DNA from: a virus
IMG/VR virus record: IMGVR_UViG_3300047409_000248
Span: 10,180 to 74,179 of that record
DNA length: 64,000 bases
Strand: one strand, 5' to 3'
Of this stretch, positions 4,765-36,875 are shown piece by piece. The first letter of the stretch is position 1; every line of letters begins with the position of its first letter. The notes beneath the pieces were generated by a model that was given only the letters and a program-made list of their open reading frames with translations, was not told where the DNA came from and searched no databases. The position numbers and the translations under genes were made by a program.

Positions 4765-5081
4765 TTCTTCTTCCAGAACTTGCTGCGCTTGGTGTATTTG
4801 CGTTTTCCTTTGGTCGAAGTCTTTTCCACCTTGATCTTCTTGACCTTGGTTGGCTTGGCAGTAGGGATGCCGCTTTCTATAAAGCTGCATGCTTTCTCAG
4901 CAACATTAATCAGCGCATCGCCATCGAAACCACGCCGGATGAACTCCACAGTAATGCTTTCGCGTCTGCGAAGCGCTTCGCTATAAACTTGGCCTTCCAG
5001 CCAGTCGATGCGGGATTGAGTTGCTTTCTCATACTGGGCTGCTGTGTATTCGTTTTCTTTCTCTCTTTCGGATTTGGTCAT
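4761..5081 (-). CDS. Hypothetical protein with basic C-terminus
   Basis: ATGA coupling at both ends; KRKYTKRSKFWKKK tail. Confidence 0.65.
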   Translation of the reverse strand: MTKSEREKENEYTAAQYEKATQSRIDWLEGQVYSEALRRRESITVEFIRRGFDGDALINVAEKACSFIESGIPTAKPTKVKKIKVEKTSTKGKRKYTKRSKFWKKK

Positions 5082-7999: not shown

Positions 8000-8566
8000 T
8001 TATGATCTCCCGGATGCAGTTGCGAGTTTTGGTAGTTTGAAATCTTTCTTCTGGCGGTCCCTGATCTTGATCTCCATCAGGAACCAGAGAGCAATATTGG
8101 CGAAGTTAGCTGCCAATTCCAAATAGCCAGCACCCTTGATGGTATCCGTGATAAGGAAAGTCCCATTGAAGAAGAGAAAGAATGTTCTAACGTAGAAGCT
8201 ACCGCGCCCACCGGCCAGTACAAGTCTATTGTAAGCTTCTGGTCCCTTATTCTGGAGGATATATCGAGGCAGTGAGATCAGCGTGCTACATAAGAATACC
8301 ATGGCGCCGATCCACATGCTCTGGCGCTGGATGCATGACAGAACAACAATGGTCATATCCAGAAAGATGAACGTCGCCACGAACATCCCTGTCCAGTCAA
8401 AGACCCAGAGATAGAGATCATTGATCCGGGCGACTAACCAAGCATCAGCCTTTTTGTAAATCTCCATGGCGTCATGCTGCCTTTGACTTCTTGACAAATT
8501 TACCGTTCTCGCGAATGGCTCCACGCCGCCGCGCCATGCCTTCCTTTCGGCCAGCAGCCCGAACAC
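8000..8566 (-). CDS. Multi-pass membrane protein (true start probably near 8467)
   Basis: About four hydrophobic segments. Confidence 0.6.
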   Translation of the reverse strand: MFGLLAERKAWRGGVEPFARTVNLSRSQRQHDAMEIYKKADAWLVARINDLYLWVFDWTGMFVATFIFLDMTIVVLSCIQRQSMWIGAMVFLCSTLISLPRYILQNKGPEAYNRLVLAGGRGSFYVRTFFLFFNGTFLITDTIKGAGYLELAANFANIALWFLMEIKIRDRQKKDFKLPKLATASGRS

Positions 8567-9852: not shown

Positions 9853-10287
9853 TTATTCAGTGCTGAATTCCCGCACGCCTTCTATCAGATGATAGGGCGG
9901 ACGCTTGTTCTTTACCACCTTCTTCTTTCCGTTGGGCGCCTTGGTCTTACTTTGCGTTTTTCCAGAACCACGGTGCGAAGGCTGCATCGGAGATAGCACA
10001 TATACTCCGGGCATGAAATTGGTGCCACGATCAAACGCGACAATCTCCAGCCGCATGCTTTCAGGTGTATGATACCGAAACCACTTGTTCCTCACCTTCA
10101 AATAGGTTCGGCTTTTGTAGACACGAACCGAAGTACATTTCGGTACCTGCCGCAAGCAAGCTCTGGCAGCGGCGCAACTGGAAGGCTCTTTAGACTTTCC
10201 AGCATTGATATCCTGACGGCTGATCTCGATCACAACGCGTGACTTTGCGTCATGAACCGGCATCCCGTCGATCTTCAAATTCTTCAT
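9853..10287 (-). CDS. Hypothetical basic protein
   Basis: AGAGGGAA RBS; DI..G....P.SCA.ARA motif. Confidence 0.7.
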   Translation of the reverse strand: MKNLKIDGMPVHDAKSRVVIEISRQDINAGKSKEPSSCAAARACLRQVPKCTSVRVYKSRTYLKVRNKWFRYHTPESMRLEIVAFDRGTNFMPGVYVLSPMQPSHRGSGKTQSKTKAPNGKKKVVKNKRPPYHLIEGVREFSTE

Positions 10288-10321
10288 CTAATTCCCTCTA
10301 AGTAAGGTTTCGATCCCACAC

Positions 10322-10469: not shown

Positions 10470-10856
10470 TCATTTGGGCTTTCCATCTGTCGATGTGTCC
10501 GAGTGGGTACCAGCCCCGCCGAGATCCAACGTCACCGATGGATCACTCTCTCCCGAGGGTAGAGAGCCTATGCGAAGCGGGGCTGATTGTGGTGTCGATG
10601 AGAGCGCAACAGCGACGAGCACCTGTTGCAGGATCATGTCCTTGTAGGCCACATCATTTGTGATGAGCGCGGTTTCTATCCGGGCGAGACAAGCATCATC
10701 TAGCGGTCTTTGGGCATGACCGGCAAACTTCTGTAGGTAATGAGCGGCTTCACCTAGAGCATTTCGAACGTCAGCGCTGGGCATATCCTCTTGCAGATAG
10801 ATCAGCGCCTGCGCCAACTCATTCAGTCTCGCGGTCTCAGGAGAAATCTGGTTCAT
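10470..10856 (-). CDS. Hypothetical protein
   Basis: AAGAGGGAAA RBS; first gene of the leftward unit. Confidence 0.6.
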   Translation of the reverse strand: MNQISPETARLNELAQALIYLQEDMPSADVRNALGEAAHYLQKFAGHAQRPLDDACLARIETALITNDVAYKDMILQQVLVAVALSSTPQSAPLRIGSLPSGESDPSVTLDLGGAGTHSDTSTDGKPK

Positions 10857-10929
10857 TTCATTTCCCTCTTGTGTTGATCGTCAGTATACATTATGGGTAT
10901 TGGTAGAGGCTTGGCAAGAGGATATTAGC

Positions 10930-17889: not shown

Positions 17890-19101
17890 TTACTTGTAAC
17901 TTACTGTCCTGCCATAGGGAGCTTTGGCGCCAGAGTTGGCCCAGTCTACCCAAACTACGGGAAACTCAGGCTGTGGACCAAAACTGGAGGTCATCATGTC
18001 CGTGAGGAAGATGCAGCCGATGACATCGGACATCTCACCAACGGTCTTCATAGCGGTATCGAAGTTAGTCCCACCACCACCACCAGCATTCCAGCCCTTC
18101 AGGTCTTCTGAGGACTTGGCTTCCAGTGTGTTCTGGATGCGGGTATCCACAGAGATAAGCGTGACATGGTTGATCAGGTTCTGATCCAGAAGGCTTGCAG
18201 CCTCCTCGCACATTTCTTGGATCATCTGCTGGCTGACTGAGCCAGAGACATCCAAGCACATGACCAGCTTGAACACCTTGTCATTTCCGTTCCCGGGAAA
18301 ATATTCATCATTCCCAAGGCGGCGCCGGTTGGGCCGTGTCCAAACGCGAGTGGTGTTGGACTTGGCATCGCGAGACATATCCCGGATCAGGTCTTTCCAA
18401 TCGATTTTCTCTTTCGGGAAAAGGTCTTGGATCAGACGCTGAAGATTACCGGGCATGGTACCGGGCGGGGATTTCTCGATAGCTCCCGCGACGGAATTCT
18501 TCCATTGGCGCTCGCCCTGTTCCTGTTCTTGCTCTGATGTCTCGTCAGAGAACATGGAGCCGGGCTTTTCTTGTTCTCCCTCTTGGCCCTCGCCTTCGCC
18601 TTCCCCGTCGCCATCTCCATCCTCAGGCTGGCCTTGACCCTGACCTTTGCCCTTCTGTTTCTGCTTCTGCTTTTCTTGTTTTTCTTCCTGCTGTTGCAGG
18701 AGTTCATAAACAGCCTCAGGTGATAGTTTGCTGAACTTATCATCCCTCAAAGCATCTTCAGGGAGCTTGAAATAGTCTTCCACGACCTTATTGGCCGGGA
18801 AAGAACAGGACTGGTTCCAGCGCTCCTCCTGACGATAGCGACGGCGGGAAACGTGCAACATCGCGCAATGCAGCACCGTCTTGAGCAGGATACCTTCCAG
18901 AAACTTGTCGGCTTCGCCATCTTCCACGAAATCAGGATTGTAAAAGATATCGATGCCGTTGGTCCAGACGGTTTGATGTTTCTTGCTCTCAATGATGTTT
19001 GCACCAAACAGGATTGATGCAAAGAACGGATTGCGCTTAGCCACGCGTTCCCGCGCTATAAGCATTCGTCGCATTGCAGTTGGTTTCAGAATGTTGAACA
19101 T
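17890..19101 (-). CDS. VWA-domain/metallopeptidase-like protein (DUF2201-type), partner of the MoxR AAA
   Basis: NPFF...T.WTNG..I.YNP; acidic/Gly linker; MIDAS DVSGS, GGGGT, FLTD; AGAGGGAAA RBS supports a start at 19101. Confidence 0.9.
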   Translation of the reverse strand: MFNILKPTAMRRMLIARERVAKRNPFFASILFGANIIESKKHQTVWTNGIDIFYNPDFVEDGEADKFLEGILLKTVLHCAMLHVSRRRYRQEERWNQSCSFPANKVVEDYFKLPEDALRDDKFSKLSPEAVYELLQQQEEKQEKQKQKQKGKGQGQGQPEDGDGDGEGEGEGQEGEQEKPGSMFSDETSEQEQEQGERQWKNSVAGAIEKSPPGTMPGNLQRLIQDLFPKEKIDWKDLIRDMSRDAKSNTTRVWTRPNRRRLGNDEYFPGNGNDKVFKLVMCLDVSGSVSQQMIQEMCEEAASLLDQNLINHVTLISVDTRIQNTLEAKSSEDLKGWNAGGGGGTNFDTAMKTVGEMSDVIGCIFLTDMMTSSFGPQPEFPVVWVDWANSGAKAPYGRTVSYK

Positions 19102-19169
19102 TGGTTTCCCTCTTTGAGCGAGATTGCTCAATACTGGAGTGGATTTCACCACTCCAGAGTTTAGCAATC

Positions 19170-20210
19170 TTATTTGCCGCTGCCTTCCAGCAACAACTCC
19201 TTGAGTTGCGGGATATTCGCAAGAGACTTATCCCGGCTCATGGCGTCATGAACGCACATGGAAGCGACATCCGGCAACAGTCTTGCCAGATATTTGGCGA
19301 ACTGCGCCGCGTTCTTGGCCGTCATGTTGCGAGCGATGGTGCCGCCCATCAGATACTGAAAGTGAGCATCTGCGGGAAGCTTGGCCTTGACCGGATCAGC
19401 TAAGATATCCGCGATCTTCGGCAGTCCTGCTGCCAAGCGATCAAGGAAACTCTCGAACTGACGGCTAAAACCCTCGCCCAAGATAGCCAGCGCCGCGTTG
19501 CCCAGAACCGTTTTCAGGGTTTTCTGGTCCAGTCCCAGCGCATCACTATCCTTAAGAACCTTATTGAAGTTCTCAAGACTGCGCGGCGTTGGAAATGCAG
19601 CATGATTGACATCCACCTTATGGACCAACTCAGGACGAAGCTGGAGAAACGCGATCAGGCGCTTGTCCCAGCCCCATTCCTTGGTCTTTTCGATGAAGCC
19701 CGGCTCATCTACTTCCACAAGGATATGCGCCATGCGATTTTCAAGAGGCTTGAGCATCTTGTTATCGCCACCACCATCCTCGCGGGTATTGGAGCCCAGA
19801 ATGATCCGGTTCTGCTTGGGAAGCGGATAGCCGCCGCAAGACCGATCCAGAACCAACTGGTAAGTCATCTGCTGAAGCTGGACGCTGGCATGACCGAATT
19901 CGTCATAGAACATGACGTGCATATTGTCGTCTTCTTCCGGGACGAACGCGGGCCGCGTCCAGTATGTGGCCATCTTCTCGCGGTCAATCAGCGGCATGCC
20001 CGTGCCATCCACAATATCCTTTGTGGAAAGCCTAGTGTCATGCAAACGAGACTGGGGACCAAAATCACTCCTGACCTTGGTCATGATCTCGGTATTGATG
20101 ACCGCAGACTTGCCGACGCCCGTTGGTCCCTTGATCATTACCGGAACGTTGGCGTGGATCAGGGGATACGCGACTTCGGCAAGCTTGGTAATTTTGCACT
20201 TTAACATCAA
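19170..20210 (-). CDS. MoxR-like AAA+ ATPase
   Basis: GPTGVGKS; MFYDEF; YQLVLDR; LENR; FPTPRS. Confidence 0.9.
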   Translation of the reverse strand: MMLKCKITKLAEVAYPLIHANVPVMIKGPTGVGKSAVINTEIMTKVRSDFGPQSRLHDTRLSTKDIVDGTGMPLIDREKMATYWTRPAFVPEEDDNMHVMFYDEFGHASVQLQQMTYQLVLDRSCGGYPLPKQNRIILGSNTREDGGGDNKMLKPLENRMAHILVEVDEPGFIEKTKEWGWDKRLIAFLQLRPELVHKVDVNHAAFPTPRSLENFNKVLKDSDALGLDQKTLKTVLGNAALAILGEGFSRQFESFLDRLAAGLPKIADILADPVKAKLPADAHFQYLMGGTIARNMTAKNAAQFAKYLARLLPDVASMCVHDAMSRDKSLANIPQLKELLLEGSGK

Positions 20211-20271
20211 GGTTTTCCCTCTTGTAGAGCAGGATTGCTCAATAATGGGCTGGGATTAGCCAGCCCATAGT

Positions 20272-20451
20272 TTAGCAAACTGGTATCTTGAGACTTTTAG
20301 AGAAGCCATCGAGCTTTACTATTAGCTCATTGGCTTCTTTATGATAGCCAGCGCAGAAAGACCACCAATTGATCTCTGCGATGGCTTCCGCAATTACTCG
20401 GCGAGTAATCTCTATATCGTCTTGTTGCGGATCGCCTTGACCATAAGCCAT
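20272..20451 (-). CDS. Small hypothetical protein (59 aa, not in ORF track)
   Basis: MAYGQGDPQQDD...; GAGGAGG RBS; its stop lies in the base of an RNA element. Confidence 0.55.
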   Translation of the reverse strand: MAYGQGDPQQDDIEITRRVIAEAIAEINWWSFCAGYHKEANELIVKLDGFSKSLKIPVC

Positions 20452-20619
20452 TTAGTGGCCCTCCTCATTTGGAGATTTGTGTAAACGCGTGACTGAAGCA
20501 ATCAACGCGATTGCCATGCCAAGCGCATACAGGATGAACAAGATTTCCATATTCCCTCTATCTCGCACTTTCTACAAAGCACGTTTATTGGGCGATTTTA
20601 TGGCGCCCAATAGACTTAC

Positions 20620-21540
20620 TCAGAGATCGTATTCTGCTGCTTCTGCAACCATCTCAGACACTTCAAGATCAAGAGTGTCCAATTCCACGACTTTGGCTAG
20701 GATATCTTTGCCGCGAATAATAGCGTCTTTACGGGAATAGGAACTATCCCGCAATTCACTGGCGGTAAGATGTCCCAATCTTGCAATCGACCGCGCTAGC
20801 AGTTTGATGTCTTCACTCTCAGTAATATTCATATCCCTGAGAAGTTCTGATATCTCCCTGCAATTGTTCACAAGACTATCGCGGATCAGCTTGCCATCGG
20901 CTGTTGATTTATAGCTCTCCAACCTATCGACAAATATCCCCACGATTTCCTTGGCGCGGTTTACCATGGTCATGGCGGCCTCTTTCAGCCTCGTTTCAAT
21001 CTCCAGCGACATCTGGCTGGTCGCTTGCGCTACAGCCTCTTTCGCTATGTCAGCCACGAAATGGCCGGTTGAAGGCATTGGCCAATACGTGAGCTTGAAC
21101 CGGAACATATCCTTTGCCTTGTTGGGACTGGGATATTCAGTGCGATCAAACAAATCGCCTAGTTCTCGCTCGCTATCGGCTATCAGTGCAGGATAAACTT
21201 GCAAATACTCATCCCATGCCAAGCGTAATTCGTGCTCAGCATCTGAGATTTTCCTTGTGAATTCATCATGCACCGCGACCGGAAGCAATCTGGTTTTGTC
21301 ATCGCCCCATGGTAGAGAGTATTTGTAAACAATTTCGCGTACCCTCTGCGATGCAGCAACAACGGCTTTGACCTTGGCATGCCTACGGTCGATAAGGAAC
21401 TTGCTGGCTTTTGCGCGCCGGTCATGAAGATTGAACTTTCTTTCCACATATCCGGTTGCTGTCTTGTCGCGCCGTTCACCCAGCAATCCGCCATTTATAA
21501 TGGTCACAGAAACAAGCATTGCAGATTTGGCTAGGTCCAT
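20620..21540 (-). CDS. DUF3150-like protein accompanying AAA/VWA genes
   Basis: LAKSAMLVSVTI...K.L...Y.Y.LPW.D...RLLP...LGDLFDRTEYPS...F. Confidence 0.8.
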   Translation of the reverse strand: MDLAKSAMLVSVTIINGGLLGERRDKTATGYVERKFNLHDRRAKASKFLIDRRHAKVKAVVAASQRVREIVYKYSLPWGDDKTRLLPVAVHDEFTRKISDAEHELRLAWDEYLQVYPALIADSERELGDLFDRTEYPSPNKAKDMFRFKLTYWPMPSTGHFVADIAKEAVAQATSQMSLEIETRLKEAAMTMVNRAKEIVGIFVDRLESYKSTADGKLIRDSLVNNCREISELLRDMNITESEDIKLLARSIARLGHLTASELRDSSYSRKDAIIRGKDILAKVVELDTLDLEVSEMVAEAAEYDL

Positions 21541-21810
21541 TTGAATGTTTCCCTCTTATAGAACGCTCGTTTGGCGCTCATCACTGAGGCTCTAAAGCCT
21601 CAGGACATGAACGTCATTTCTCAACCATGAGAAAGGTGGCTTTCCCATCCGATATTTGGATTATCCCGAGTTTATCGGGATGATCGAATACTTCAGCGCT
21701 ATCTGGGTTGATCCAGGTTCGCTCAAATGCCGTCCAGCTAGCAGCTAGCAATCCTCCGATGAAAGCTAATTCGGCCTCTTTTGTCTCGAAAGACAGTTGA
21801 TAGGCTATCA

Positions 21811-22209
21811 TCAGTGCAGTGTCTTGCCGTCTTTGCGCGGAGATTTCTGCACACCACAATCGCAAATATGATCGTGGCATTGGTCCGCTACCATTCCGAA
21901 ATTATCCTCGCTGATATGGCCCATTTGCGCGGCCATGATCATGAAAGGTCTGATTGCTTCAATGGGCAATCCGATGGCTTTGCGAATTCGCTTTGCCTTG
22001 AAGATGGCATACTTGCCAACCTTAGTCGGAGCTTCGTCCATCTGCTTGGTTTCAGCGAAAAACGGCATGATAAGAAGATACCGCCAGAAGGTTTCCGCGT
22101 TGCTTTCCCATTGCGGGAAAAACTCAGCCAGCTTGCGCTTGCTGAAAGTCACACCATTGACCCTGAAGGCCGCCGATGTCTCGTTACATTCGATGCACAT
22201 GACAGGCAT
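21811..22209 (-). CDS. Hypothetical protein with Cys/His motifs
   Basis: AAGAGGGAG RBS; CIEC...CHDHICDC. Confidence 0.65.
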   Translation of the reverse strand: MPVMCIECNETSAAFRVNGVTFSKRKLAEFFPQWESNAETFWRYLLIMPFFAETKQMDEAPTKVGKYAIFKAKRIRKAIGLPIEAIRPFMIMAAQMGHISEDNFGMVADQCHDHICDCGVQKSPRKDGKTLH

Positions 22210-22485
22210 GGTTAAATCTCCCTCTTGTAGAGCATAATGCTCTATGCTGCGCTACGTGATTTGTACATAGCGCAGTGAAGAACATTAGACATATTCGTGG
22301 AATTGCGTTCCGTATTGCTCCGCGACCTGTTCTTTGGTCAGCGGTGGATTGCGCTTTTCGTGGATCATCTGCTTATAATTGAGCGCATAGTAAGTCACCC
22401 AATTAGCTGCATGTGGATATCCTACCATTTGGAACGGCGTCCTTGGCCGCTTCAGAAGGCGCGATATGGGCGTAGGTTGGCCATT

Positions 22486-22761
22486 TTAATGGCCCTCCTC
22501 AAACGTATCCACAAGCTCAAAACCGGCCTCATCAAGCTCCATCGTCATATATGTTATGGGCTGGTTGATGGTTTCGGCATAAGCTTTGACGGTTTGATCT
22601 GGCGCGCAGAATATTTCATCTGCCGCTGTTTCCAGCAGTTGTTGATTTTTAATGAACCAACCAGCGCCAGCGATTTCAGCCTCATCGCGGTTTTTGGCTT
22701 CCACCTCAATCTCAATTCCGATTGCTGCGGAGGCTTCAAAATGCACTTTAAATTTTGGCAT
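22486..22761 (-). CDS. Hypothetical phage protein
   Basis: MPKFKV...IEVEAKNRDEAEI.A; AAGAGGGAAAA RBS. Confidence 0.7.
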   Translation of the reverse strand: MPKFKVHFEASAAIGIEIEVEAKNRDEAEIAGAGWFIKNQQLLETAADEIFCAPDQTVKAYAETINQPITYMTMELDEAGFELVDTFEEGH

Positions 22762-22999
22762 GGTTTTCCCTCTTATTGAGCGTAATGCTCATCACTGAAG
22801 CCCGTAAGCTTCAGGACATGAGCACTAGATAAAACAGGCTATGATAAAGCCTATACTGCCAAAGCCTATTGTAAGGGTCAGGCAGTCAAAGATTGCAGTG
22901 CGGAATTCCGCTTCTTCCTGCGTCATGATATGAGCCATATCATTCCTGCGGCCCAGAGCGCCATATAGACGCCCCAGAACGCAACCAGATATTTGTCAA

Positions 23000-23194
23000 T
23001 CATGAGCTAACCCATGATGCGCCGCAGGCCAGATAGAATTGCTCCGCGTGAAAGTTGGCATTGGTATCGCCAAGCCGGTCAGCGAAAGCCTTTGCGACTT
23101 TCTGCTTTTCAGCTTGTTCGATGTCCAAGCCATCAATCGTTGCGGCAATCAACTCGAAATGCCGTCGCTGCATTGATGTTTGATGTCTTGCCAT
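23000..23194 (-). CDS. Small conserved phage early protein
   Basis: MQRRHFELIA..I...VA.AFAD.L...N.NF....F..ACG; AAGAGGGAAAA RBS. Confidence 0.75.
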   Translation of the reverse strand: MARHQTSMQRRHFELIAATIDGLDIEQAEKQKVAKAFADRLGDTNANFHAEQFYLACGASWVSS

Positions 23195-23261
23195 GGTGTT
23201 TTCCCTCTTGAAGCTTAAGCGCTTCGTGCTGCACCTATTGCTAGGTGCAGTGTCGAAAAGC

Positions 23262-23510
23262 TTATTCTGCGGCTTGCAATTCACGCGTGCTGCGCTTGAT
23301 GGCAGCCCGAACCGAATTCAACGCTCCGAAAACCTTGGATTTAATTTCCTTGTTTCCGATTGCGTTGGCATGCGGCCAAGCGAGTTCAAGCGCAGTCTTT
23401 GCAGCGCCGAATTCACCGTTGCGGATAAGACGCTCTGCGGTAGAAAGATGCAGGGTCAACGTGACTTTGTGACTGTCGCGCTCTGCATCGTTCAATTGCC
23501 TTTTTGCCAT
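23262..23510 (-). CDS. Helical hypothetical protein
   Basis: AAGAGGGAAA RBS; lies between two RNA elements. Confidence 0.7.
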   Translation of the reverse strand: MAKRQLNDAERDSHKVTLTLHLSTAERLIRNGEFGAAKTALELAWPHANAIGNKEIKSKVFGALNSVRAAIKRSTRELQAAE

Positions 23511-23571
23511 GGTATTTCCCTCTTAGAGCGGAATGCTCTATGACGCTCTCCGTAGAGAGCGCTTAGAACAC

Positions 23572-23751
23572 TCAATCAGCGTCGTCAGTCTTGAGCGGGG
23601 AAGCGTAGTAATATTGTTCGTTCTTTGCGTACAGGAACGCTCCGAGCTTGACGACTTTAACGCCGCCGCGCTTAAGCGCCACTTCCATCGTATCGCCTTC
23701 AGCCATACGAATAGGAGATTTAACCGCCCAAACCTTTGCAAATTGTGCCAT
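23572..23751 (-). CDS. Small hypothetical protein (59 aa, not in ORF track)
   Basis: MAQFAKVWAVKSPIRMAEGDTMEVALKRGG...; AGAGGGAAAA RBS; bounded by two RNA elements. Confidence 0.7.
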   Translation of the reverse strand: MAQFAKVWAVKSPIRMAEGDTMEVALKRGGVKVVKLGAFLYAKNEQYYYASPLKTDDAD

Positions 23752-23823
23752 GTGTTTTCCCTCTCTTGAAGCAAAATGCTTCGTGCTGGAGAGTGGTTAA
23801 GCTCTCCAGTGTCGAAACACTCG

Positions 23824-24333
23824 CTAAAGACAAGCGCCAGCTTTGATCCGGAAGCGAGCGGAACTAAATCCGCCAGATACAGGGTCAGTGATTACCAGTT
23901 GACCGTCCTGGCGAAGCATCCAATTTCCGCTGTGCAAATCGCCGCTAAGATTGTTACGGCGAAGTTCAGCGACATATTCAACGATATCCGTTGCTTCGCA
24001 TTGGCCGCGATTAAAGATATTATTGAAGACACGCGCTTGTGCTGTTCTAGCACCATGTTCGTATTTGAGTTCACTCATGGTGCAGATAAGGCGTTCCATG
24101 ATAGCCACGTAAAACTCATCATGGAATTTCAGGCTGTAGACCTTGGGAGCGAATTTCCCAGCGTGGCCGTTATTCGTGGCCCATTGGATATAGGAAGGCC
24201 ATTCGTCCAGTTCCCCAACCTTAATCACCTTATCGAAGGCGTTAGGAATGGAGTAAACCTTGGAATAAAGGCCGCTCCCTATCTGGAGACATCCAAGCTC
24301 TGCCAGTCTTGCCTGATATTCGCGTTGGTTCAT
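23824..24333 (-). CDS. Minimal Ser/Thr protein kinase-like protein
   Basis: IGSGLYSKVY (Gly loop), VIK, MERL, DLHSGN (catalytic loop), VITDP. Confidence 0.85.
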   Translation of the reverse strand: MNQREYQARLAELGCLQIGSGLYSKVYSIPNAFDKVIKVGELDEWPSYIQWATNNGHAGKFAPKVYSLKFHDEFYVAIMERLICTMSELKYEHGARTAQARVFNNIFNRGQCEATDIVEYVAELRRNNLSGDLHSGNWMLRQDGQLVITDPVSGGFSSARFRIKAGACL

Positions 24334-24421
24334 GGTGGTTTCCCTCTCTATGGCAGTTGAAAATTGCCTAACCGGCTAGACTAAACGCCTAGCCGAAATA
24401 ATGTGCTGAGGTATTCTAATA

Positions 24422-24637
24422 CTAAGCTCCGATACGCCATATGTCAGAAGTGACATTATGGTGGTCGATTGCGCCGCATGATTTAAGCCCGGCTTTCACC
24501 GGGATACGAAAATCGTTTGGCCTTGTTTTCCATGTCTGAGTTTTGCCATTGCGGCGGCATTTCCAATAGTTCCCGTTGCCCATACGGGCATAAAGCGAAC
24601 CATTGTCCAATGCCGTTTCAAGTGCTTCCTTTGTCAT
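24422..24637 (-). CDS. Small conserved phage protein, first gene of the putative early operon
   Basis: W.CRRNGKTQTWKTRP.DFRIPVK.GL motif; AAGAGGGA RBS. Confidence 0.75.
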   Translation of the reverse strand: MTKEALETALDNGSLYARMGNGNYWKCRRNGKTQTWKTRPNDFRIPVKAGLKSCGAIDHHNVTSDIWRIGA

Positions 24638-25354
24638 GGTATGTAATCCCTCTTTCGGCTAAATTGCCTAATAGCTAAAGAGGCTTAGCAGGGTAGGAAG
24701 TCGGAAAATGAATTCCGGCTAACCACACTGCCAAGCCTCTAAAGCCAAAAAGCCAGCTTTCTAGGGCTAGCTGGTAGTAGAGAGAAAAGGGTATGGAACA
24801 GCTTGTTACGGCTGTTCCCCATGTTGCCAAGTGCAATGCTTGGTATCATCCCCCCATGCCAACCTGCTCAATGAGACTTACGGCGCGATCCGGGGATAGG
24901 TAGCTTATGACGACCAGACGATGCTGGCGCTACTGTCCCGCCTTGCTAGGCAATGGAAAGAGGAGTTTTAGGCGTTCTAGCCCGATTTTTATCCCCGCCA
25001 TGGTTACTCTCGCTCCGCTACACGGGAACGCTATGCCCCTATCGCGTAAGCTACCCTAGCCATAGTCCAGAAAGGGAAATTGCTCGCAAGTATTGCCTAA
25101 TGAGGGCTGGATCGCTGGAGGTTGTCTGTCCCTCCTTGGACGGCATATGGCGCTTGCTACGCCTGCCGGGACTAGGGCCTAATCGACCTAGTGGCTGAAT
25201 GCGCTCTATCAAATCTCCATCTCGTTAACCTGAGATAAAGATACGCCTTTGTAGCAATCCAGTTAGTGGGTTAGACGCATGGCTGGTATGCGCTGAGATC
25301 ATAACGCTTGCTAAGTGTAGCTAATCAATGCATTATTGCATGGCAGGTATGCAC

Positions 25355-25666
25355 ATGACGCAGCAATGCTCTAATTGCCAATCAATCCACGATGCATCTG
25401 GGCGCTACTGTAAGCCTTGCCGAGCGGCTTATATGCGAAATTATCGCCGCATCAATCCTGCCAAGCCATCGCACGAGCAACGCTCTAAAGCCATCTGTAG
25501 GGCTACCGCTAACGTCTACAAACGTAGAGGCAAGATAACCCTAGAACCATGTGAGCATTGCCTAGCTGATAAAGTCGAAATGCATCATGACGACTATACC
25601 AAGCCCCTAGTCGTCAGGTTCCTATGTGTCCCATGCCATAGGGCGCTGCATTATCCCGGACCATGA
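25355..25666 (+). CDS. HNH-like Zn-ribbon protein
   Basis: CSNC...CKPC; CEHC...MHHDDYTKPLVVRFLCVPCH; paralogue of 5407..5874. Confidence 0.75.
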   Translation: MTQQCSNCQSIHDASGRYCKPCRAAYMRNYRRINPAKPSHEQRSKAICRATANVYKRRGKITLEPCEHCLADKVEMHHDDYTKPLVVRFLCVPCHRALHYPGP

Positions 25667-25699
25667 ATAACGGGCGAAAGGGTAAGGCAATCGACCTCC

Positions 25700-26000
25700 C
25701 TCGCGTTGTTCCACGTGTAACCCACATGCACATGCGAGTCATTCGCATATAGCCACATGCGAACCACTAGCAACAAGCCTCATGCCAATGAGATATGCAC
25801 ATAGCGCATAGACCCATGCGTGCTAAGCATATGATATTCCACAAGTTCCCACCCCCTCCCCCATGCATAGCAGCTAGCTCATCCAGATAAGAACAGTTCG
25901 CATCAAGCCTCATGCCAAGCACCTATGCACTACAGCATTGCACCTATGCGCCCATAGGAGGGCTAGTCGATAATGATAGTCATTCGCAAAAGGGTACCTT
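25700..26000. repeat. Non-coding region with short direct repeats
   Basis: CAAGCCTCATGCCAA at 25774 and 25904; AGTCATTCGCA at 25737 and 25978; many CATG/GCAT/CATA motifs. Confidence 0.6.
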
Positions 26001-26158
26001 GGGGTCGGCCAACCCGCCTATAGGATCGCCCCGCCCAGTCGGAGCCTTCTCGGCCATTCGACCTTTATGTAAAATTTTATAGAAGACCCTTCTTGTATCG
26101 TAAGCGGTGTAAGCATATCCTGTAAGGATTGTAAGTACTGCATGTAAGGGAGCGTAAT

Positions 26159-30713: not shown

Positions 30714-31173
30714 AGGGCGCCCCAAAGGCCCTATCATGGCCAATGAATTCCAGAACCTGTCCCAGCGGCTTCGTTGGCTGCGGCAGAACCAGAAGCCATA
30801 CATGACCCAAGAGCAGCTAGCCTATGCGTCCGGGGTTAGCGTGCAGTTCATCCGGCTTTACGAGACGGGCGGTCAAATCCACATGGGGACAGAAACCATC
30901 CAGAAGCTGGCCTCTGCCCTTGGATGCCGCTTCTCTATTCGTCTGAAGAGACTAAGCAGTCGAGAGACAATGGAGTTCCCGGCTCCAAGTGCATCTTTGC
31001 CATCCGTCCCAAAACGGAAGGGTAAAATTTCGGTGCAAGCCCGAACGCAGGCCGAATTACGCGAATGTTCTCCTTGGACAGTTTTTCACCAGCGGAAACA
31101 GGAGCGGTTACGTAAATCGAGCGCCGGAACTGAAGGTTCGCTGCCTGCGAAGGTGAAGAAGAGGGCCGGGTAG
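30706..31173 (+). CDS. XRE-family HTH regulator
   Basis: LRWLR...MTQEQLAYASGVSVQFIRLYETG...TIQKLASALG; 3' part overlaps pseI in antisense. Confidence 0.8.
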   Translation: MPRGRPKGPIMANEFQNLSQRLRWLRQNQKPYMTQEQLAYASGVSVQFIRLYETGGQIHMGTETIQKLASALGCRFSIRLKRLSSRETMEFPAPSASLPSVPKRKGKISVQARTQAELRECSPWTVFHQRKQERLRKSSAGTEGSLPAKVKKRAG

Positions 31174-31987
31174 CCTCCCATGCTTCCCTGCACGCCGTTA
31201 CAAGAGCCCCAAACTCCATAGGCTCCAGACTAAAATGGCTATCTGGGCCGCCAGCACTGCGGCTAAGGCAGAGGTGCTTCTCGACAATGCAGGCACCAAA
31301 AGCGATAGCAGCAGCAGAGACCCCGACACCAAGAGTATGATCTGATATTCCAACAACATGTCTTCCTCCCAGAAGACTACTCAACTGTCCCAACCTTGGT
31401 AGGTTGGACTGACTGGCGCTGGCCGGATAAGCACTGATGCAGTGCAATAAGGCTACATCAGGATTTGCGGAAAATCTATTGATGGTATTCAGTGCATCTC
31501 GGATTTCCTGAGAGCCCCCCATTCCAGTAGATAGGATGATTGGTCTGTCAGTTTCTGCCGTAGCTTGGATGAGCGGCAGATCAGTAAGCTCAAAACTCGC
31601 GATCTTGTAAGCAGAAACATTGAGCCTTTGCAGCAAGTCAATTGCGGTCTCATCGAATACCGACGCGAACACCTCGATCTTTCTAACAGACCTAGCGTAA
31701 TCGAAAATTCTCTCAAACCACTCTGGGGGAGTATGAGCCTCCCGATAGAGATCGTATAAAGTCCTTCCCTTCCATGGACCGTCCTTGATAAGGAAATCAT
31801 CTCTGTCACTCTTCATGGTAATTGTATCAGGCGTGTAACACTGAAGTTTGACCGCATCAGCGCCATTAAAATAGGCATTATCAATCAGGCGATATACGTT
31901 ATTGATGTCACCATTATGATTGCCAGAAAGCTCAGCAATCATATAGGGCGACTGATCCGGCCCTATCTCTCTGGTGCCGATCCTCAT
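30935..31987 (-). CDS. pseI: Pseudaminic acid synthase (NeuB family)
   Basis: IAELSGNHNG, GADAVKLQ.Y, KIASFE, STGM, LLHCISAYP, GISDHT, VEKH, C-terminal SAF domain RRSIY. Confidence 0.93.
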   Translation of the reverse strand: MRIGTREIGPDQSPYMIAELSGNHNGDINNVYRLIDNAYFNGADAVKLQCYTPDTITMKSDRDDFLIKDGPWKGRTLYDLYREAHTPPEWFERIFDYARSVRKIEVFASVFDETAIDLLQRLNVSAYKIASFELTDLPLIQATAETDRPIILSTGMGGSQEIRDALNTINRFSANPDVALLHCISAYPASASQSNLPRLGQLSSLLGGRHVVGISDHTLGVGVSAAAIAFGACIVEKHLCLSRSAGGPDSHFSLEPMEFGALVTACREAWEATRPSSSPSQAANLQFRRSIYVTAPVSAGEKLSKENIRVIRPAFGLAPKFYPSVLGRMAKMHLEPGTPLSLDCLVSSDE

Positions 31988-32199
31988 TTCTTCTCCAGAT
32001 CGCGCGGGATATAATCCTCTGTGGCCATGGCTCGCATCAGGCGGGATATTTCGAGGTCCATGACGAGTATCTTCCCCATGACTTCCTTGGTGGATTTTGG
32101 ATCAGCCCTCATGGCAATCCGAAGTATCTCCATCCAGTTGTTGTTATTGTATGACCTGACACGTTCGATCTGGTCCAGAAGATGCTCATCAGTGATCAC
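31984..32199 (-). CDS. Small hypothetical protein of the sugar cluster
   Basis: LDQIERVRS.NNNNWMEILRIA motif; coupled to neighbours. Confidence 0.65.
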   Translation of the reverse strand: MITDEHLLDQIERVRSYNNNNWMEILRIAMRADPKSTKEVMGKILVMDLEISRLMRAMATEDYIPRDLEKK

Positions 32200-33310
32200 T
32201 TAATCTCCTCCTCAATTCATCTAGATGTTCCAGCTTGATATCATAGGAGCATGTCTCGATCAGCATCAGCTTGCCGAGACTGCGATAGACATCGGTATCC
32301 AGAAGCTCCATCTGGCGCTGCGGAGTAAGCCACTTGTTGCTAACCGTCATGGTCAGCAGGTTACCATGATAGCCAAGCGAAACCGGGATGGGATTTCTAG
32401 CCCTAATCCAATCTACTATGGTGGAAGGATTGTATTCCTCACTGGGATCAACCAGCATCGAGAAGGCGTAATAGGTATGGTCGCAGCCCGCTCTGGGCTT
32501 GGGAACACCGAGAAATTCAAATCTGGAAAATATCTCAGCAAGATGGCTGGCAATCAGTTGCCTGCTGGCAACGATGCGGGGAAGTTTCTTGAGTTGTTCT
32601 CGCCCTACGGCTGCGGTCAGTTCTGTCATGCGAAGATTAAGCCCGGGAGTTTCCTGATGACGGCACTCACCATGATTGATGGCGTCATGTAGCTTCATAA
32701 GGAGATCGCCATCCTTGGTCATTACCATGCCGCCCTCTCCGGTCTGGATATGCTTGTGTACGTTCAGGGAGAACACGCCCATATGGCCGATGGTGCCGGT
32801 AAACTCCCCGTCCTCGCGCGCCATGATCGCCTGAGCGTTATCCTCAATCAGGATAATACCGCGACTGTCACACATGGAACGCAACTGCTTGAGCTTGGCT
32901 GGATGGCCGAACATATTGGTGGCGATCACGGCTTTGGTGTTTTCCGTAATCTGCCTGCCGACATCATTGGGATCAAGGCAGAACGTTTCGGGTTCGATAT
33001 CCGCCAGAATGATCGTGGCTCCCAGCACCGCAGGCGCACAGGCGGTTGCTGACATCGTGAAGTAGGGAACGATCACTTCATCCATCGGCCCTACACCAGC
33101 CGCCATACAGGCTGCCAGCAAACCAGACGTGGCTGAATTACAGGAGACGGCATATCCGCCAAAGGCGCTTTCCCATTCAGCCTCGAATAATGTTACCTCC
33201 GCGCCTGCCTTGCTGCTGCTTGCTACAAAGCCTGACAGGTTGCCGCTGCGGATCACCCGCAAGACGGCCTCTTCTTCCTCTTTGCCGATGGTCAAAAACT
33301 TCTGGATCAT
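32189..33310 (-). CDS. DegT/DnrJ-family sugar aminotransferase (PseC-like)
   Basis: NSATSGL, IEDNAQA, FSLNVHKHIQTGEGGM (PLP lysine). Confidence 0.92.
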   Translation of the reverse strand: MIQKFLTIGKEEEEAVLRVIRSGNLSGFVASSSKAGAEVTLFEAEWESAFGGYAVSCNSATSGLLAACMAAGVGPMDEVIVPYFTMSATACAPAVLGATIILADIEPETFCLDPNDVGRQITENTKAVIATNMFGHPAKLKQLRSMCDSRGIILIEDNAQAIMAREDGEFTGTIGHMGVFSLNVHKHIQTGEGGMVMTKDGDLLMKLHDAINHGECRHQETPGLNLRMTELTAAVGREQLKKLPRIVASRQLIASHLAEIFSRFEFLGVPKPRAGCDHTYYAFSMLVDPSEEYNPSTIVDWIRARNPIPVSLGYHGNLLTMTVSNKWLTPQRQMELLDTDVYRSLGKLMLIETCSYDIKLEHLDELRRRLSDH

Positions 33311-33441
33311 TTCTTTTTCTTTTCTTCCAGCTTATCGATTAGAGATAATATGACTGCGCTCTCAGCCGCCCTCAACTCTTTGAGAACCTCTATCCTCCCC
33401 TTGAGTGACCTGATAATCTTTTTGTAAGTTTTCTTCTTCAT
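33307..33441 (-). CDS. Small basic protein (44 aa, not in ORF track)
   Basis: MKKKTYKKIIRSLKG...; ATGA overlaps at both ends link pseB and the aminotransferase. Confidence 0.6.
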   Translation of the reverse strand: MKKKTYKKIIRSLKGRIEVLKELRAAESAVILSLIDKLEEKKKK

Positions 33442-34355
33442 AGGTAGGTCCGCAATTGCTCTATGGTCAGGAATTTGGTGTTGGTGTCGCTGGAGTACCG
33501 GAAACCCGGCTTGACGTTGTTGCTGATATCCGGGTTCAGGATGTATCGATCATGAGCTTCCAGCGCCAAGTAGCTCTCCTCCTCCGTCATCAGTACCTCA
33601 TGCAGCTTCTCGCCCGGCCTGATGCCAACGATCTTCATGCCGAGATCAGGCGCCATCGCGGTTGCCAGATCAACCACGCGCATGGAGGGAAGCTTGGGGA
33701 TGAATATCTCACGGCCCTTCATCATCGAGAGGGATGAAAGGACAAGTTCTACCGCCTGATCCATCGTCATCCAGAAGCGTGTCATGCGAGGGTCCGTGAT
33801 CGGTAGTTCCTGCTTTAGCCTACTAAGCCGGTCAAATAGAGGAACCACAGAACCCCTAGAACCAACAACGTTCCCATAACGGCAGACAGAATAATTACAT
33901 CGTCCAGCACTGACATTATTTGCGGCGACAAGGATTTTTTCTGCGGCGAGTTTAGTCGCTCCGTAAAGGTTAAGCGGTGATACAGCTTTGTCAGTAGACA
34001 AGCCGATAACACGGTCCACACCAGCAGCAAGACTAGCCCGACAGACATTTTCGGCTCCATGGATATTGGTCAGCACGCACTCGAACGGATTATATTCCGC
34101 AATCGGCACCACCTTCATGGCAGCCGCATGGATTACAGTATCGATCCCGTTCATGGCCATTTGAAGGCGTGGCTGGTCGCGGACATCGCCAATGAAGAAG
34201 CGCAGGCGCTGATCATCGAACTTCCGCGCCATATCCTCCTGAAGATGCTCTCCGCGCGAGTATATGACGATGCGATCCGCCAGCTTGTCATCCAGCAGCC
34301 GCTTGGTGAATGCCTGCCCAAACGATCCAGAACCTCCCGTAATAAGAACCCTCAC
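33438..34355 (-). CDS. pseB: UDP-GlcNAc 4,6-dehydratase (inverting)
   Basis: GGSGSFG, RFFIGDVRD, HAAAMK.VP.AEYNPFE, STDKA, YGATK, RYGNVVGSRGSVVP, GIRPGEKLHE. Confidence 0.95.
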   Translation of the reverse strand: MRVLITGGSGSFGQAFTKRLLDDKLADRIVIYSRGEHLQEDMARKFDDQRLRFFIGDVRDQPRLQMAMNGIDTVIHAAAMKVVPIAEYNPFECVLTNIHGAENVCRASLAAGVDRVIGLSTDKAVSPLNLYGATKLAAEKILVAANNVSAGRCNYSVCRYGNVVGSRGSVVPLFDRLSRLKQELPITDPRMTRFWMTMDQAVELVLSSLSMMKGREIFIPKLPSMRVVDLATAMAPDLGMKIVGIRPGEKLHEVLMTEEESYLALEAHDRYILNPDISNNVKPGFRYSSDTNTKFLTIEQLRTYL

Positions 34356-34696
34356 TTAACCTCCAAAATCTCTACGCCAGCTTTTCGGGCCTTATTGATC
34401 ATATCAGCGGTGCCGTTTCCGCCCGGGAAGGCGACTACCAAATCAGGGCCCCACGTCAGCATATGTGCATTTCGTATTGGACCTGCGGCTAGTCCATGCG
34501 TATCCCAGTCAGCGTAACTTACGTATCTGGTAATTTCGGGCTTGGTCTTGGCCCAATCACTGGCAAAGGTATCAACTCCTTTGGCGCCACCATGAATGAG
34601 ATCAGTAAACTTATGGATGGAATGCAGGGCATCCAGCGCCTTCGATACTTGCGCTGGACTCCTGAAGTTCCTGCCACCACAGACCAGAACTCTCAT
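34352..34696 (-). CDS. SLOG/DUF2493 (YspA-like) protein
   Basis: RVLVCGGRNF, IHGGAKGVD, AAGPIRN, AFPGGNGTADM. Confidence 0.9.
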   Translation of the reverse strand: MRVLVCGGRNFRSPAQVSKALDALHSIHKFTDLIHGGAKGVDTFASDWAKTKPEITRYVSYADWDTHGLAAGPIRNAHMLTWGPDLVVAFPGGNGTADMINKARKAGVEILEVK

Positions 34697-34896
34697 TTGT
34701 GCTCTTTTACCAAACCAAGGAAATCAAGAAGTTGATGGCGTCCATCGGCACGCTTAGTGTGCTCTTGCGCCTTGGCAACAGTAGCATCTGCTTTGGCTTT
34801 GGTATTTTGCATGGACGCAAAGGTGAGGAAGCCTACGGCCCCTACCATAGTTACAAAGCCCGCGATCCAAACAATCATTGTCCTGCGATCCATCAC
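34693..34896 (-). CDS. Small membrane protein
   Basis: One N-terminal TM helix; coupled to neighbours. Confidence 0.6.
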   Translation of the reverse strand: MMDRRTMIVWIAGFVTMVGAVGFLTFASMQNTKAKADATVAKAQEHTKRADGRHQLLDFLGLVKEHK

Positions 34897-36875
34897 CTAA
34901 CTCCCTTGGCTGCAACCAGACCACCATCCAGATGTTCTAGGATGTCAGAGCCTACGGCTTCTTCGATCTTCTTGAGGGCTTCGTGCCATCCGCCGATGAT
35001 GCGTAGAAATTCAGACTGCCTGTGGACAGCACTTAGATTATGGCTTCCGATAATCAACACACCAGCCTTAGCCATCTCCTGAATGAACAGGGTCTGGATG
35101 CCATTGTTCTTGAACTTGATGCGATTGAGTTCTGGTAGCCCATAAAGACTGATGAAGTCTTCAAGGCCATAATCGCCGATGATCTTGTTCAAAACCGACC
35201 GCAAATTAATGCCATCTAATTGAAGCTTTTCATGAACCAAATCCCGCTCCAGCTTCTCAATGGTGGCGATAGCTGCTGCGATGGAAAGCGTCTCGCCAAA
35301 GAAAGTCCCGGAATAACTAATCTCTGGCATATGCTTCATATACTTCTCCAGACCAACCAGCGCCGATATGGGCATGCCGTTAGCCATGGATTTGCCGAAA
35401 CATGCCAGATCAGGAATGACGCCCAGCGAAGCCTGTAGACCACCCAGACCACACCTGAAGCCGGTAATGATCTCATCGAAGATCAGGATGATGCCACGAT
35501 CAGTGCAATCAAGCCTCATTTGCTTCAATTCCTGTGGAGAATAGAATTCAGGCTCCACAATGCAGGCAGCAATCTCACCTGAAGGAGTTATCTGATCAAA
35601 GGTACAGCTATTGGCCTTGACCCCATCCGGGATGCCATTATTGCGTATGGTATGAGCCATACTCCAATCGTGCCAGCCGTGATAGCCTCCCACCATGACC
35701 TTATCGCGCCTCGTCACATGCCGAGCCAGTCTTACTGCTGCTGTAGTGACATCAGAGCCGTTCTTGCCGAACTTCACCATCTCAGCACAGGGGATATGCT
35801 TAGTCAGGATGGAGGCAAGTTTTTCCTCCAGTGGTGTCGCAAGACTAAAACTAATACCAGAATTAAGCTGATGCCTAATAGCTCCGTCCACGTCTGGGTC
35901 ACGATACCCAAGTATGTTAGGCAGAAGGGCACCGACGCAATCAACATAATCATTACCATCCACATCAAATACATAGGCCCCATCTCCATGGGTAACGAAC
36001 AGTGGCGCTGCGCCCTCCGGGAACATCAGCTTGCTCTTGCTGAAAGTTTGAGTTCCGAGAGGTATTAAGCTCTCAGCAGCGCTCAGCAATGCCTTGGAGT
36101 TCGAGTAGGATCGCTTGACACTACCCTCGCCAGCTAGCGCTTCATAGAAGCGTTCGTTGCGGGAGTATTTCGCGTTGATCTTTCTAATCCACGGCTCCTT
36201 ATCAAGGATTGACAGGATTTGTAGATAGCTGGGTGGCGTGCCGCTATCCCCAAGCATCTTCGCGACTTCCCGAACGAAGTCATAATCCTCCGGACTATCG
36301 AGAACCCATCTCTCCCGAACCAGATCAGGAACGCCGCAGACAAGGTTAGCCGCCAGAAAACGATAACGGTTTCGGACCATAAATCGCGTAACAGTATCCC
36401 GATCAGTTGGCCGCACTGCTTCACGATTTGCCGCCTCCAGAGCATCTTTGGTGAACACTTCCACATCAAGGCCATCCGGGTAAGTGGGAGGATCAGTGTT
36501 AGTAGCATAGTCAGCATTCCTCATAGTGCGAAGCCGAATGACTTCACCGATAACGGCTGGATCAAGGAAAGGGCAATCAGCGGTCAGGCGCACGATGATA
36601 TCGGCACCAGTAGCACTCAATGCCGCCAGATAGCGCGAGAGTACATCCGTCTCGCTGCCTCTGACGACATTGATACCGCGTTTGGATGCCCACTGAGCAA
36701 TGGCATCATCCTGAGGGAGGGTGGAAGTCGCGACAACCACCTCATCCACGCCCGGGGCACGGCGGGCAGCTTCTACCACCCATTCAATGGTCGGTCTACC
36801 CGCAATGTCCATCAATACCTTGCCCGGCAGACGGGTTGATCCCATGCGGGCCTGAACTACAGCTACGGTCTTCAT
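34893..36875 (-). CDS. SpsF/PseF-like cytidylyltransferase fused to class III (GSA-like) aminotransferase
   Basis: QARMGSTRLPGKV, GSETDVLSRY, RLTADCP; then QTFSKS, KNGSD.T, YHGW, FDEIITGFR, FGKSMANG. Confidence 0.93.
   Translation of the reverse strand: MKTVAVVQARMGSTRLPGKVLMDIAGRPTIEWVVEAARRAPGVDEVVVATSTLPQDDAIAQWASKRGINVVRGSETDVLSRYLAALSATGADIIVRLTADCPFLDPAVIGEVIRLRTMRNADYATNTDPPTYPDGLDVEVFTKDALEAANREAVRPTDRDTVTRFMVRNRYRFLAANLVCGVPDLVRERWVLDSPEDYDFVREVAKMLGDSGTPPSYLQILSILDKEPWIRKINAKYSRNERFYEALAGEGSVKRSYSNSKALLSAAESLIPLGTQTFSKSKLMFPEGAAPLFVTHGDGAYVFDVDGNDYVDCVGALLPNILGYRDPDVDGAIRHQLNSGISFSLATPLEEKLASILTKHIPCAEMVKFGKNGSDVTTAAVRLARHVTRRDKVMVGGYHGWHDWSMAHTIRNNGIPDGVKANSCTFDQITPSGEIAACIVEPEFYSPQELKQMRLDCTDRGIILIFDEIITGFRCGLGGLQASLGVIPDLACFGKSMANGMPISALVGLEKYMKHMPEISYSGTFFGETLSIAAAIATIEKLERDLVHEKLQLDGINLRSVLNKIIGDYGLEDFISLYGLPELNRIKFKNNGIQTLFIQEMAKAGVLIIGSHNLSAVHRQSEFLRIIGGWHEALKKIEEAVGSDILEHLDGGLVAAKGVR

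Follow-up and report, generated by a model that had tools for sequence, protein, structure and literature searches.

Covarying two-tier hairpins with an alternative pairing occupy the gene junctions of one operon in an uncultivated soil phage

RNase III cuts the early mRNA of phage T7 at the sites R0.3, R0.5, R1, R1.1 and R1.3, which are hairpins interrupted by an internal loop, with the cut located on the 3' side of that loop. Similarly, early mRNAs of the Bacillus phages SP82/SPO1 contain repeated, similar intercistronic hairpins that are processed by Bs-RNase III. Other types of repeated intergenic motifs include the promoter-early stem-loop (PeSL) elements of T4-type phages (PMC2839356, PMC4122927) and the start-associated sequences (SAS) and extended SAS (ESAS) of Cluster K mycobacteriophages (PMC3203893). 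Here, we describe a family of RNA hairpins found at the gene junctions of an operon in a 64,000-nucleotide stretch of viral DNA (hereafter called the window), which corresponds to bases 10180-74179 of the 74,179-bp IMG/VR record IMGVR_UViG_3300047409_000248. The record stems from a soil-metagenome assembly; the phage is uncultivated, and soil metagenome is the sole source of its sequence. The hairpins are composed of a lower and an upper stem separated by a small internal loop, and the 3' arm of the lower stem can alternatively pair with a downstream arm just before the ribosome-binding site (RBS) of the next gene. That this element represents a real, new RNA motif family without a described relative in Rfam is well supported by our sequence analyses.

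The leftward operon runs on the minus strand from ~24.75 to 17.9 kb and contains ~16 open reading frames (ORFs), most of them small. Part of its genes are coupled by overlapping stop and start codons, and such joints harbour no element. The remaining 11 gaps between same-strand ORFs, between 24.75 and 19.1 kb, are 60-125 nt long. The original prediction, made from the sequence alone, was that hairpins fill about 11 gene junctions of this operon. All 11 gaps do fold into hairpins, with z-scores of -3.0 to -7.5 relative to dinucleotide shuffles; none of 200 shuffled sequences folded as well at nine of the junctions, and one or two of 200 did so at the other two. Every gap also ends, as had been noted, with the RBS motif AGAGGGA, the start codon being located 5-9 nt downstream. 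This motif is found 27 times in the window versus 8.1 expected, and 11 of these occurrences are within the operon.

Eight of the 11 junctions belong to one family, as defined by a covariance model (R1) built from 33 register-consistent copies; their R1 scores range from 33 to 68 bits. In the 74-kb genome of the phage, the matches of the model were limited to these eight elements, which are located on the gene strand from 19.1 to 23.8 kb. In the order of transcription on the minus strand, they are J3 (23756-23823; 68.5 bits, z -5.8), of the UUUCG-ACA / CA-CGAAGC / GCUUC type; J4 (23513-23574; 41.4 bits, z -6.2), of the UUCUA / UAGAGC / GCUCUA type with a UACG loop; J5 (23199-23264; 64.3 bits, z -6.3), which has the flanks of J3 with another upper stem and a GCAA loop; J6 (22765-22828; 59.4 bits, z -5.5), of the CUCAU / AUGAGC / GCUCA type; J7 (22217-22288; 46.9 bits, z -6.2), with an 11-bp upper stem; and J8 (21548-21617; 53.0 bits, z -3.9), J10 (20214-20281; 33.1 bits, z -4.2) and J11 (19105-19170; 39.9 bits, z -7.5), which precede a DUF3150-like gene, an ATPase gene and a vWA-type gene, respectively. 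Four of them, J4, J7, J10 and J11, were not part of the seed. The pairs of junctions that had been put forward as examples of changed but still paired stems, and their coordinates, were correct.

The three remaining junctions are of other types, and the idea of 11 covarying elements must be narrowed accordingly: covariation was found in the family to which eight of them belong, whereas J9 has the same layout with another sequence, and J1 and J2 represent a third type. In J9 (20560-20622, minus strand; z -3.8), the 3' arm of a weak lower stem is also the 5' strand of a hairpin of 7-8 bp that precedes the RBS, giving the same two-state layout. Comparison with the orthologous junction of a related contig, L001, revealed a compensatory change, UAUUGGGCG/CGCCCAAUA against UAUGGGGCG/CGCCCCAUA. 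J1 (24660-24753, minus strand; minimum free energy -51.3 kcal/mol, z -7.4) is a long imperfect hairpin followed by TTAGGCAATTTAGCC and then by the RBS of the first gene of the operon (24422-24637, minus strand). J2 (24345-24424, minus strand; z -3.0) is composed of a 10-bp hairpin and a TTAGGCAATTTTCAACTGCC mini-hairpin before the RBS of a kinase-like gene. Neither of them matches R1, and in both a hairpin is followed by TTAGGCAATTT; this tail of J1 also precedes the first gene in the related contigs L001 and L003.

We determined the distribution of the family beyond this phage. An ATPase search yielded four related IMG/VR contigs (63-82% amino-acid identity) with the same element at their junctions, and a scan for the exact pattern of the commonest flanks yielded 30 stretches in viral contigs and four in three Bradyrhizobium genomes. 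Over 35 sources, namely the window and 34 fetched loci, R1 gave 159 matches corresponding to 101 distinct sequences in ~27 contigs. Five related whole phage records (62-100% complete) harbour 9-11 copies each, on a single strand and within 6-8 kb. In the 9.9-Mb genome of B. elkanii, all five copies are inside one 3-kb cluster, and only two of 151 sampled genomes of Bradyrhizobium's family have R1 matches. This single cluster per genome and the scarcity of matches among the family genomes mark it as a phage and prophage element tied to one operon, and for the same reasons a host-wide repeat was rejected. In the B. elkanii WSM2783 scaffold (L039, 4677-7781, minus strand), the five elements punctuate small hypothetical ORFs next to an AAA_25 (RepA-like) plus HTH protein. 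IMG/VR contains that sequence as a 72-kb viral region (L007), and its leader past the alternative arm is UUCAAAAGGG or UUCAAAUGGG instead of AGAGGGAAA.

Database searches gave no described relative. Rfam 15 yielded no match at gathering thresholds in the whole window, self-cleaving ribozymes included. Between 18 and 27 kb, with E values up to 1, the sole match was mir-449 at J1, which was rejected as a chance hit (33.9 bits versus a threshold of 60.4). No meaningful match was obtained either when the operon and one element were compared by megablast and blastn with 50,697 GenBank phage records.

The elements of the family have a common architecture. The lower stem, with the arms GUUYNN and NNRAGC, is 9-10 bp long and usually includes the upstream stop codon on its 5' strand. 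It is followed by a 3x2 internal loop, with 3 nt in its 5' strand and 2 nt in its 3' strand, most commonly ACA/CA, which is found in about half of the copies, and by an upper stem of 8-10 bp in 89 of the 101 sequences (overall range, 7-12 bp; 8-11 bp in the eight elements of this phage). Beyond the 3' arm of the lower stem come a spacer of 4-8 nt, a downstream arm (GCUYN) complementary to that 3' arm, a few bases and AGAGGGAAA-ATG. The two-stem layout with an internal loop is thus as originally described, but the lower stem is longer. An ORF ends at most 12 nt from the lower stem in 85 of the 101 elements, and in most elements an ORF starts 10-25 nt past the alternative arm. Counted from the GUU of the lower stem, the stop codon has its first base at position -5 or -4 in 62 of the 85 elements that follow an ORF. 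Several sequence types of lower stems are found within one genome. In the related contig L002, a further hairpin is present past the alternative arm and ahead of the RBS at three junctions (2800-2860, 4790-4860 and 8300-8375); one of these extra hairpins is terminator-like with a U-run after it (CATGAGAA...TTCTCATG CTTTTTC).

Both stems of the main hairpin change in sequence while pairing is kept, as had been claimed. Pairing over the 101 distinct sequences amounts to 99.1% in the upper stem, with double changes in all eight pairs, and to 93.4% in the lower stem, with double changes in six of nine pairs, compared with 33-49% for shifted partner columns used as a control; these copies come from detectors that favour pairing, and many are paralogues, so that the cells of this count are not independent events. 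The 5' arms of the upper stems comprise 91 different sequences. The covariation result was the same with A2, a MAFFT-only subset alignment that was not fitted to the structure, as with the model-based alignment A3. An all-type MAFFT alignment (A1) was set aside because variants with 2-nt and 3-nt internal loops were out of register. The five orthologous junctions that precede the ATPase gene have five unrelated upper stems, each fully paired, which speaks against common descent as the explanation for pairing.

The original prediction also assigned an alternative downstream partner to the 3' arm, and both partners indeed covary with it, so that double changes are found in all three helices. As the downstream arm was modelled as unpaired in R1, its alignment is not biased towards pairing. 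In more than 90% of the sequences, five of its positions can pair with the 3' arm, and two of those covary, with 15 and 21 double changes. There are at least five sequences of this helix, GAAGC/GCUUC, UGAGC/GCUCA, AGAGC/GCUCU, GGAGC/GCUCC and GGAAC/GUUCC. Because the 3' arm is common to both helices, the lower stem and the alternative hairpin are mutually exclusive. With each state enforced, the closed hairpin was predicted to be more stable than the alternative one in 83 of 91 elements (median, -4.7 kcal/mol). The alternative hairpin is thus expected to form only when the 5' arm has been removed or is occupied, which calls for a trigger. In a hypothetical 3' product starting just past the upper stem, the small hairpin is located 3 nt from the 5' end in 64 of the 101 sequences and at most 4 nt from it in 93.

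Several features distinguish the two strands. At one position of the lower stem, a U.G pair is present in 87 of the 101 sequences; the opposite strand would have a C.A mismatch instead, and the alternative helix has a G-C pair where the lower stem has this U.G. The upper stems contain 18 G.U versus four A.C combinations, and in the sole A.C that recurs, one partner is the third base of a UGA stop codon. The GCAA and UACG tetraloops reported at first are present, together with UUCG, and such loops are over-represented: 22 of 49 tetraloops are of the UNCG type and 12 of the GNRA type (34/49, versus ~5% expected by chance). The reverse strand also yields far lower R1 scores. These sequence features indicate that the structure is selected in the sense-strand RNA.

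How do these elements compare with the processing sites of T7? When folded in the same manner, the T7 sites R0.3, R0.5, R1.1 and R1.3 have a lower stem of 5-7 bp, an asymmetric internal loop and an upper stem of 9-12 bp, and in R0.5 the stop codon is within the lower stem. The announced likeness to the T7 hairpins therefore holds for both size and layout, with two stems and a small asymmetric internal loop spanning about two helical turns. Both types are intercistronic elements of a polycistronic early transcript and are located on its sense strand, such a transcript being deduced here from the gene layout. Apical tetraloops occur in both, and in both the stop codon can be part of the lower stem. 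Furthermore, the operon of this phage codes for a protein with a gp0.7-like kinase domain, as in T7. In contrast, there is no sequence similarity by eye, and the pattern of conservation is reversed: the upper stem is conserved between the T7 sites, whereas here the upper stem is hypervariable and the lower one conserved. No counterpart of the re-pairing downstream arm was seen in the T7 sites that we folded. Finally, unlike the T7 sites, the elements are confined to one operon, and cleavage, demonstrated in T7, is a prediction here. The SP82/SPO1 sites have unrelated sequences and a Gram-positive host, and we know of no alternative-pairing feature in them.

We tentatively favour the reading that the elements are RNase III-type processing sites, and that the new 5' end refolds into a protective hairpin. 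Cleavage itself, RNase III as the enzyme, the position of the cut and the protective effect are what we infer. The element would be a cis-acting RNA module in a polycistronic mRNA, probably made by the host RNA polymerase. Each junction would fold during transcription into the two-tier hairpin, often capped by a UNCG or GNRA loop, and host RNase III would cut it at or beside the internal loop. The upper hairpin would stay on the upstream mRNA as a 3' barrier to exonucleases. The freed NNRAGC arm would then re-pair with GCUYN to form a 5-bp hairpin ~3 nt from the new monophosphate 5' end. Located directly before AGAGGGAAA-ATG, this small hairpin would shield the downstream mRNA from 5'-end-dependent decay, and refolding would give every cassette one common leader. 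Hairpins at the 5' terminus protect E. coli mRNAs from RNase E, and a small hairpin within 3-4 nt of the 5' end has the geometry known to afford this protection.

Other data concern the machinery that might act on the transcript. No RNase III (PF00636) was found in the phage genome, and neither was a T7-type RNA polymerase (PF00940), the latter being a weak blank as the controls were silent too; host enzymes would thus have to act. Sigma-70-like hexamers (TTGACA...; TTGCCA-N17-TATACT) are present at 10230-10300 and 10800-10870 (minus strand), before two other AGAGGGAAA-led genes, which suggests reliance on the host RNA polymerase. A promoter scan of the region 17.0-28.5 kb detected no sigma-70 site inside any element, and in a terminator scan none of the eight elements scored as an intrinsic (rho-independent) terminator. 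The nearest terminator-like site on the same strand is a hairpin with a 7-bp stem and a TTTTTGG tail at 24751-24772, immediately upstream of J1. A search for sequencing runs with the phage DNA listed only soil-metagenome DNA runs, one of which is the probable source, and no RNA run.

Several points weigh against processing by RNase III. With 17-20 bp in total, the helices are at the short end for substrates of this enzyme, and the upper stems vary in length from 7 to 12 bp. RNase III has little sequence requirement, whereas the lower stem, the internal loop and the AGC...GCU sequences are conserved even where the ATPases are only 27-30% identical, although this observation is biased, as those distant contigs had been retrieved through an exact motif. 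Such conservation despite an undemanding enzyme is a hint of gene conversion or of a sequence-specific partner. The fixed register of the stop codon would suit a switch driven by the ribosome equally well. Lastly, the gp0.7 kinase of T7 stimulates RNase III, and the gp0.7-like kinase is missing from all related element-bearing loci. Overall, the initial observation is confirmed, and its interpretation in terms of RNase III processing and refolding is partly supported.

A wider proposal, which we consider possible but doubtful, is that the element is a portable, self-contained module for intercistronic expression, in which a stop-codon context and a processing hairpin are combined with a hairpin that refolds into a cap-like structure at the 5' end and with a standard RBS, and that it acts as a triggered one-way RNA switch. 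Either a nuclease cut or a terminating ribosome would flip the closed hairpin to the small 5' hairpin. Shared by diverged soil phages and Bradyrhizobium prophages, the module would allow unrelated cassettes to be exchanged and expressed at once. Integron or PeSL cassette systems would thereby have a counterpart at the RNA level.

Among the explanations that dispense with nuclease processing, the one that survives best, though we think it rather unlikely, invokes the ribosome. A ribosome terminating at the upstream stop codon, within the lower stem, would open the 5' arm, and the 3' arm would then capture the downstream arm, coupling the two genes without cleavage. Upstream translation would thereby open, or bring close, the next RBS across the 65-80 nt gap, as in the closed state the downstream arm can weakly pair with the Shine-Dalgarno (SD) sequence. 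Covariation in both helices fits such a switch, and the hairpin places the stop codon and the RBS near each other in space. The preferred position of the stop codon (-5 or -4; 62 of 85 elements) also agrees with it, but the T7 RNase III sites embed a stop codon as well, and this register is therefore not discriminating. The predicted probability that the SD core is unpaired is on average 0.39 in the closed and 0.52 in the alternative state, and it is lower by more than 0.2 in the closed state in 28 of 75 elements and higher in seven. However, this effect is small and inconsistent, with several elements of the window having a null effect or one of opposite sign, and pairing of the alternative arm with the SD is often prevented by too short a spacer between them. 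In addition, the more stable closed state should re-form after the ribosome has departed.

The elements might also function uncut, as passive insulators or stabilizers, an explanation that we regard as unlikely. The hairpins would stop 3' exonucleases once the mRNA has undergone random endonucleolytic decay, and they would keep the cassettes from pairing with one another over long distances, while the small hairpin and the purine-rich leader would standardize the start of translation. The high stability of the hairpins with their UNCG and GNRA caps, the uniform leader past the element and the unrelated genes on both sides are in line with this explanation. In contrast, it does not account for the conserved internal loop or for the covariation of the downstream arm with a 3' arm that is already paired, since conservation is not expected of a hairpin that never forms.

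We find it improbable that the element is an operator for a dedicated phage or host RNA-binding protein, such as an antiterminator, a translational regulator or a sequence-specific endoribonuclease. Such a protein would recognize the lower stem and the internal loop, with the variable upper stem as a mere scaffold. Conservation of the lower stem, the ACA/CA loop and the AGC sequence across contigs whose proteins are 27-30% identical, and the restriction of the elements to one operon per genome, would be expected of an operator. However, no candidate protein co-occurs with the elements. Their DUF3150-like, MoxR ATPase and vWA neighbours have no RNA-related signature, and none of these conserved neighbours is present within the 8 kb seen around the Bradyrhizobium cluster. 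The occurrence of several types of lower-stem sequences side by side in one genome also argues against such an operator.

Recombination had been proposed as a further role, and a purely DNA-level version of it, in which the conserved flanks provide short homologies for cassette swaps and the RNA structure is incidental, appears very improbable. The precedent is that of the PeSLs. Like the present elements, they are repeated composite intergenic motifs that end in a Shine-Dalgarno sequence and start codon, they are found between small, variable early genes, and they are tied to insertions, deletions and gene replacements among relatives; cassette recombination has been proposed as a consequence for the PeSLs of T4-type phages (PMC4122927). 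In contrast, PeSLs have a sigma-70-like promoter downstream of a terminator-type stem-loop, whereas here there are no such hexamers and the region from hairpin to RBS is only 15-30 nt, and the two-tier covarying hairpin with its alternative pairing sets our elements apart. Upstream of the conserved core, each of five related phages has a different set of genes, with shared gene families in differing orders, and several blastn matches between genomes cover just an element or start at one, the neighbouring genes being non-homologous. The recombination claim thus fits the mosaic gene order, with the elements as isolated islands of DNA homology, but this is a correlation only. A linker of this kind needs a conserved sequence, not 99% pairing over 91 upper stems, and it leaves the sense-strand U.G pairs, the RNA-type tetraloops and the covarying alternative arm unexplained. 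Furthermore, no tyrosine recombinase or integrase (PF00589) was found in the genome, although all control genomes were matched, and the attC core motifs (RYYYAAC / GTTRRRY) are absent from the main family, GTTAGGC being present in the window only at J2. Cassette shuffling is more likely a by-product of the elements.

The SAS and ESAS motifs resemble our elements in that a short conserved motif containing the RBS precedes a subset of genes, with all copies in one orientation; in addition, an inverted repeat whose spacer is variable is found before about half of the SAS (PMC3203893). They have other sequences and belong to phages of another host phylum. In addition, the inverted repeats of ESAS are conserved in sequence (17-bp consensus half-sites) and scattered, whereas here the upper stem is free to vary, the copies are clustered and there is an exclusive second helix. 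DNA hairpin promoters of the N4 type, suggested by the N4 gp24/gp25-like ATPase and vWA genes, were rejected because a PHROG scan of the largest ORFs revealed no RNA polymerase family, no ORF has the size of a virion RNA polymerase, the loops are variable (4-10 nt) and there is one element per gene.

We also analysed the genes of the operon. The second one (23824-24333, minus strand), downstream of J2, codes for the 169-aa gp0.7-like kinase-domain protein (phrog_15752, E 1.1e-17). BLASTP aligned it with residues 66-216 of T7 gp0.7 (29% identity over 157 aa, E 2e-9), and a Pfam search gave no match. It consists of the kinase domain alone, the C-terminal shut-off domain being missing, and among the element-bearing loci examined it is unique to this phage. 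J8 is followed by a gene (20620-21540, minus strand) for a 306-aa protein that was called DUF3150-like from language-model features only, without a Pfam, PHROG or PDB match. In element-bearing contigs this gene is kept together with the next two, which code for a MoxR-type AAA ATPase (19170-20204, minus strand; phrog_1297, E 1e-63), whose tblastn matches are annotated as N4 gp24-like, and for a 403-aa protein (17890-19101, minus strand; phrog_1314, E 5e-76) taken to be vWA/N4 gp25-like. The latter is encoded by the final gene located downstream of an element. No tRNA genes were found in the phage.

The RBS motif is not restricted to the operon. Additional AGAGGGAAA sites are found at 28069 on the plus strand and at 17387, 10869, 10299 and 9639 on the minus strand, and hairpin-free genes outside the operon use the same purine-rich motif (AAGAGGGAAA). 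The presence of the RBS without a hairpin indicates that the two are separable.

A 1.4-kb region (24760-26150) without convincing ORFs separates the leftward operon from the rightward genes, the first of which starts at 26159. On the minus strand of this region, TTGGCATGAGGCTTG occurs twice in identical form, at 25774-25788 and, 130 nt away, at 25904-25918 (0.02 expected), and near 26090-26150 there are about five CTTAC(A) repeats with a spacing of ~10 nt; L001 has GCGTTAC repeats at the corresponding place (~900-960). These repeats may be promoter or operator sites, or an origin. Farther away, the region 30935-39640 (minus strand) harbours sugar-modification genes. It includes a 373-aa ORF (32189-33310) that matches an aminotransferase PHROG and a 660-aa ORF (34893-36875, minus strand) with a class III aminotransferase-like region; because of this domain, a DNA polymerase was rejected as an assignment for the latter.

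The function of the elements is most likely of a familiar kind, and their new design feature is the conserved second helix. If confirmed, they would constitute a new structured RNA family outside Rfam, which is represented in prophages of rhizobia and in uncultivated soil phages by more than 100 distinct copies. T7-style punctuation of mRNA would then also be found in an unrelated phage lineage. The second helix would cap the monophosphate 5' end made by processing, which suggests how cistrons could escape 5'-end-dependent decay. Such an element might be of use as a compact natural insulator between cistrons in alphaproteobacteria. Finally, its link with cassette mosaicism bears on how phages shuffle their early host-takeover genes.

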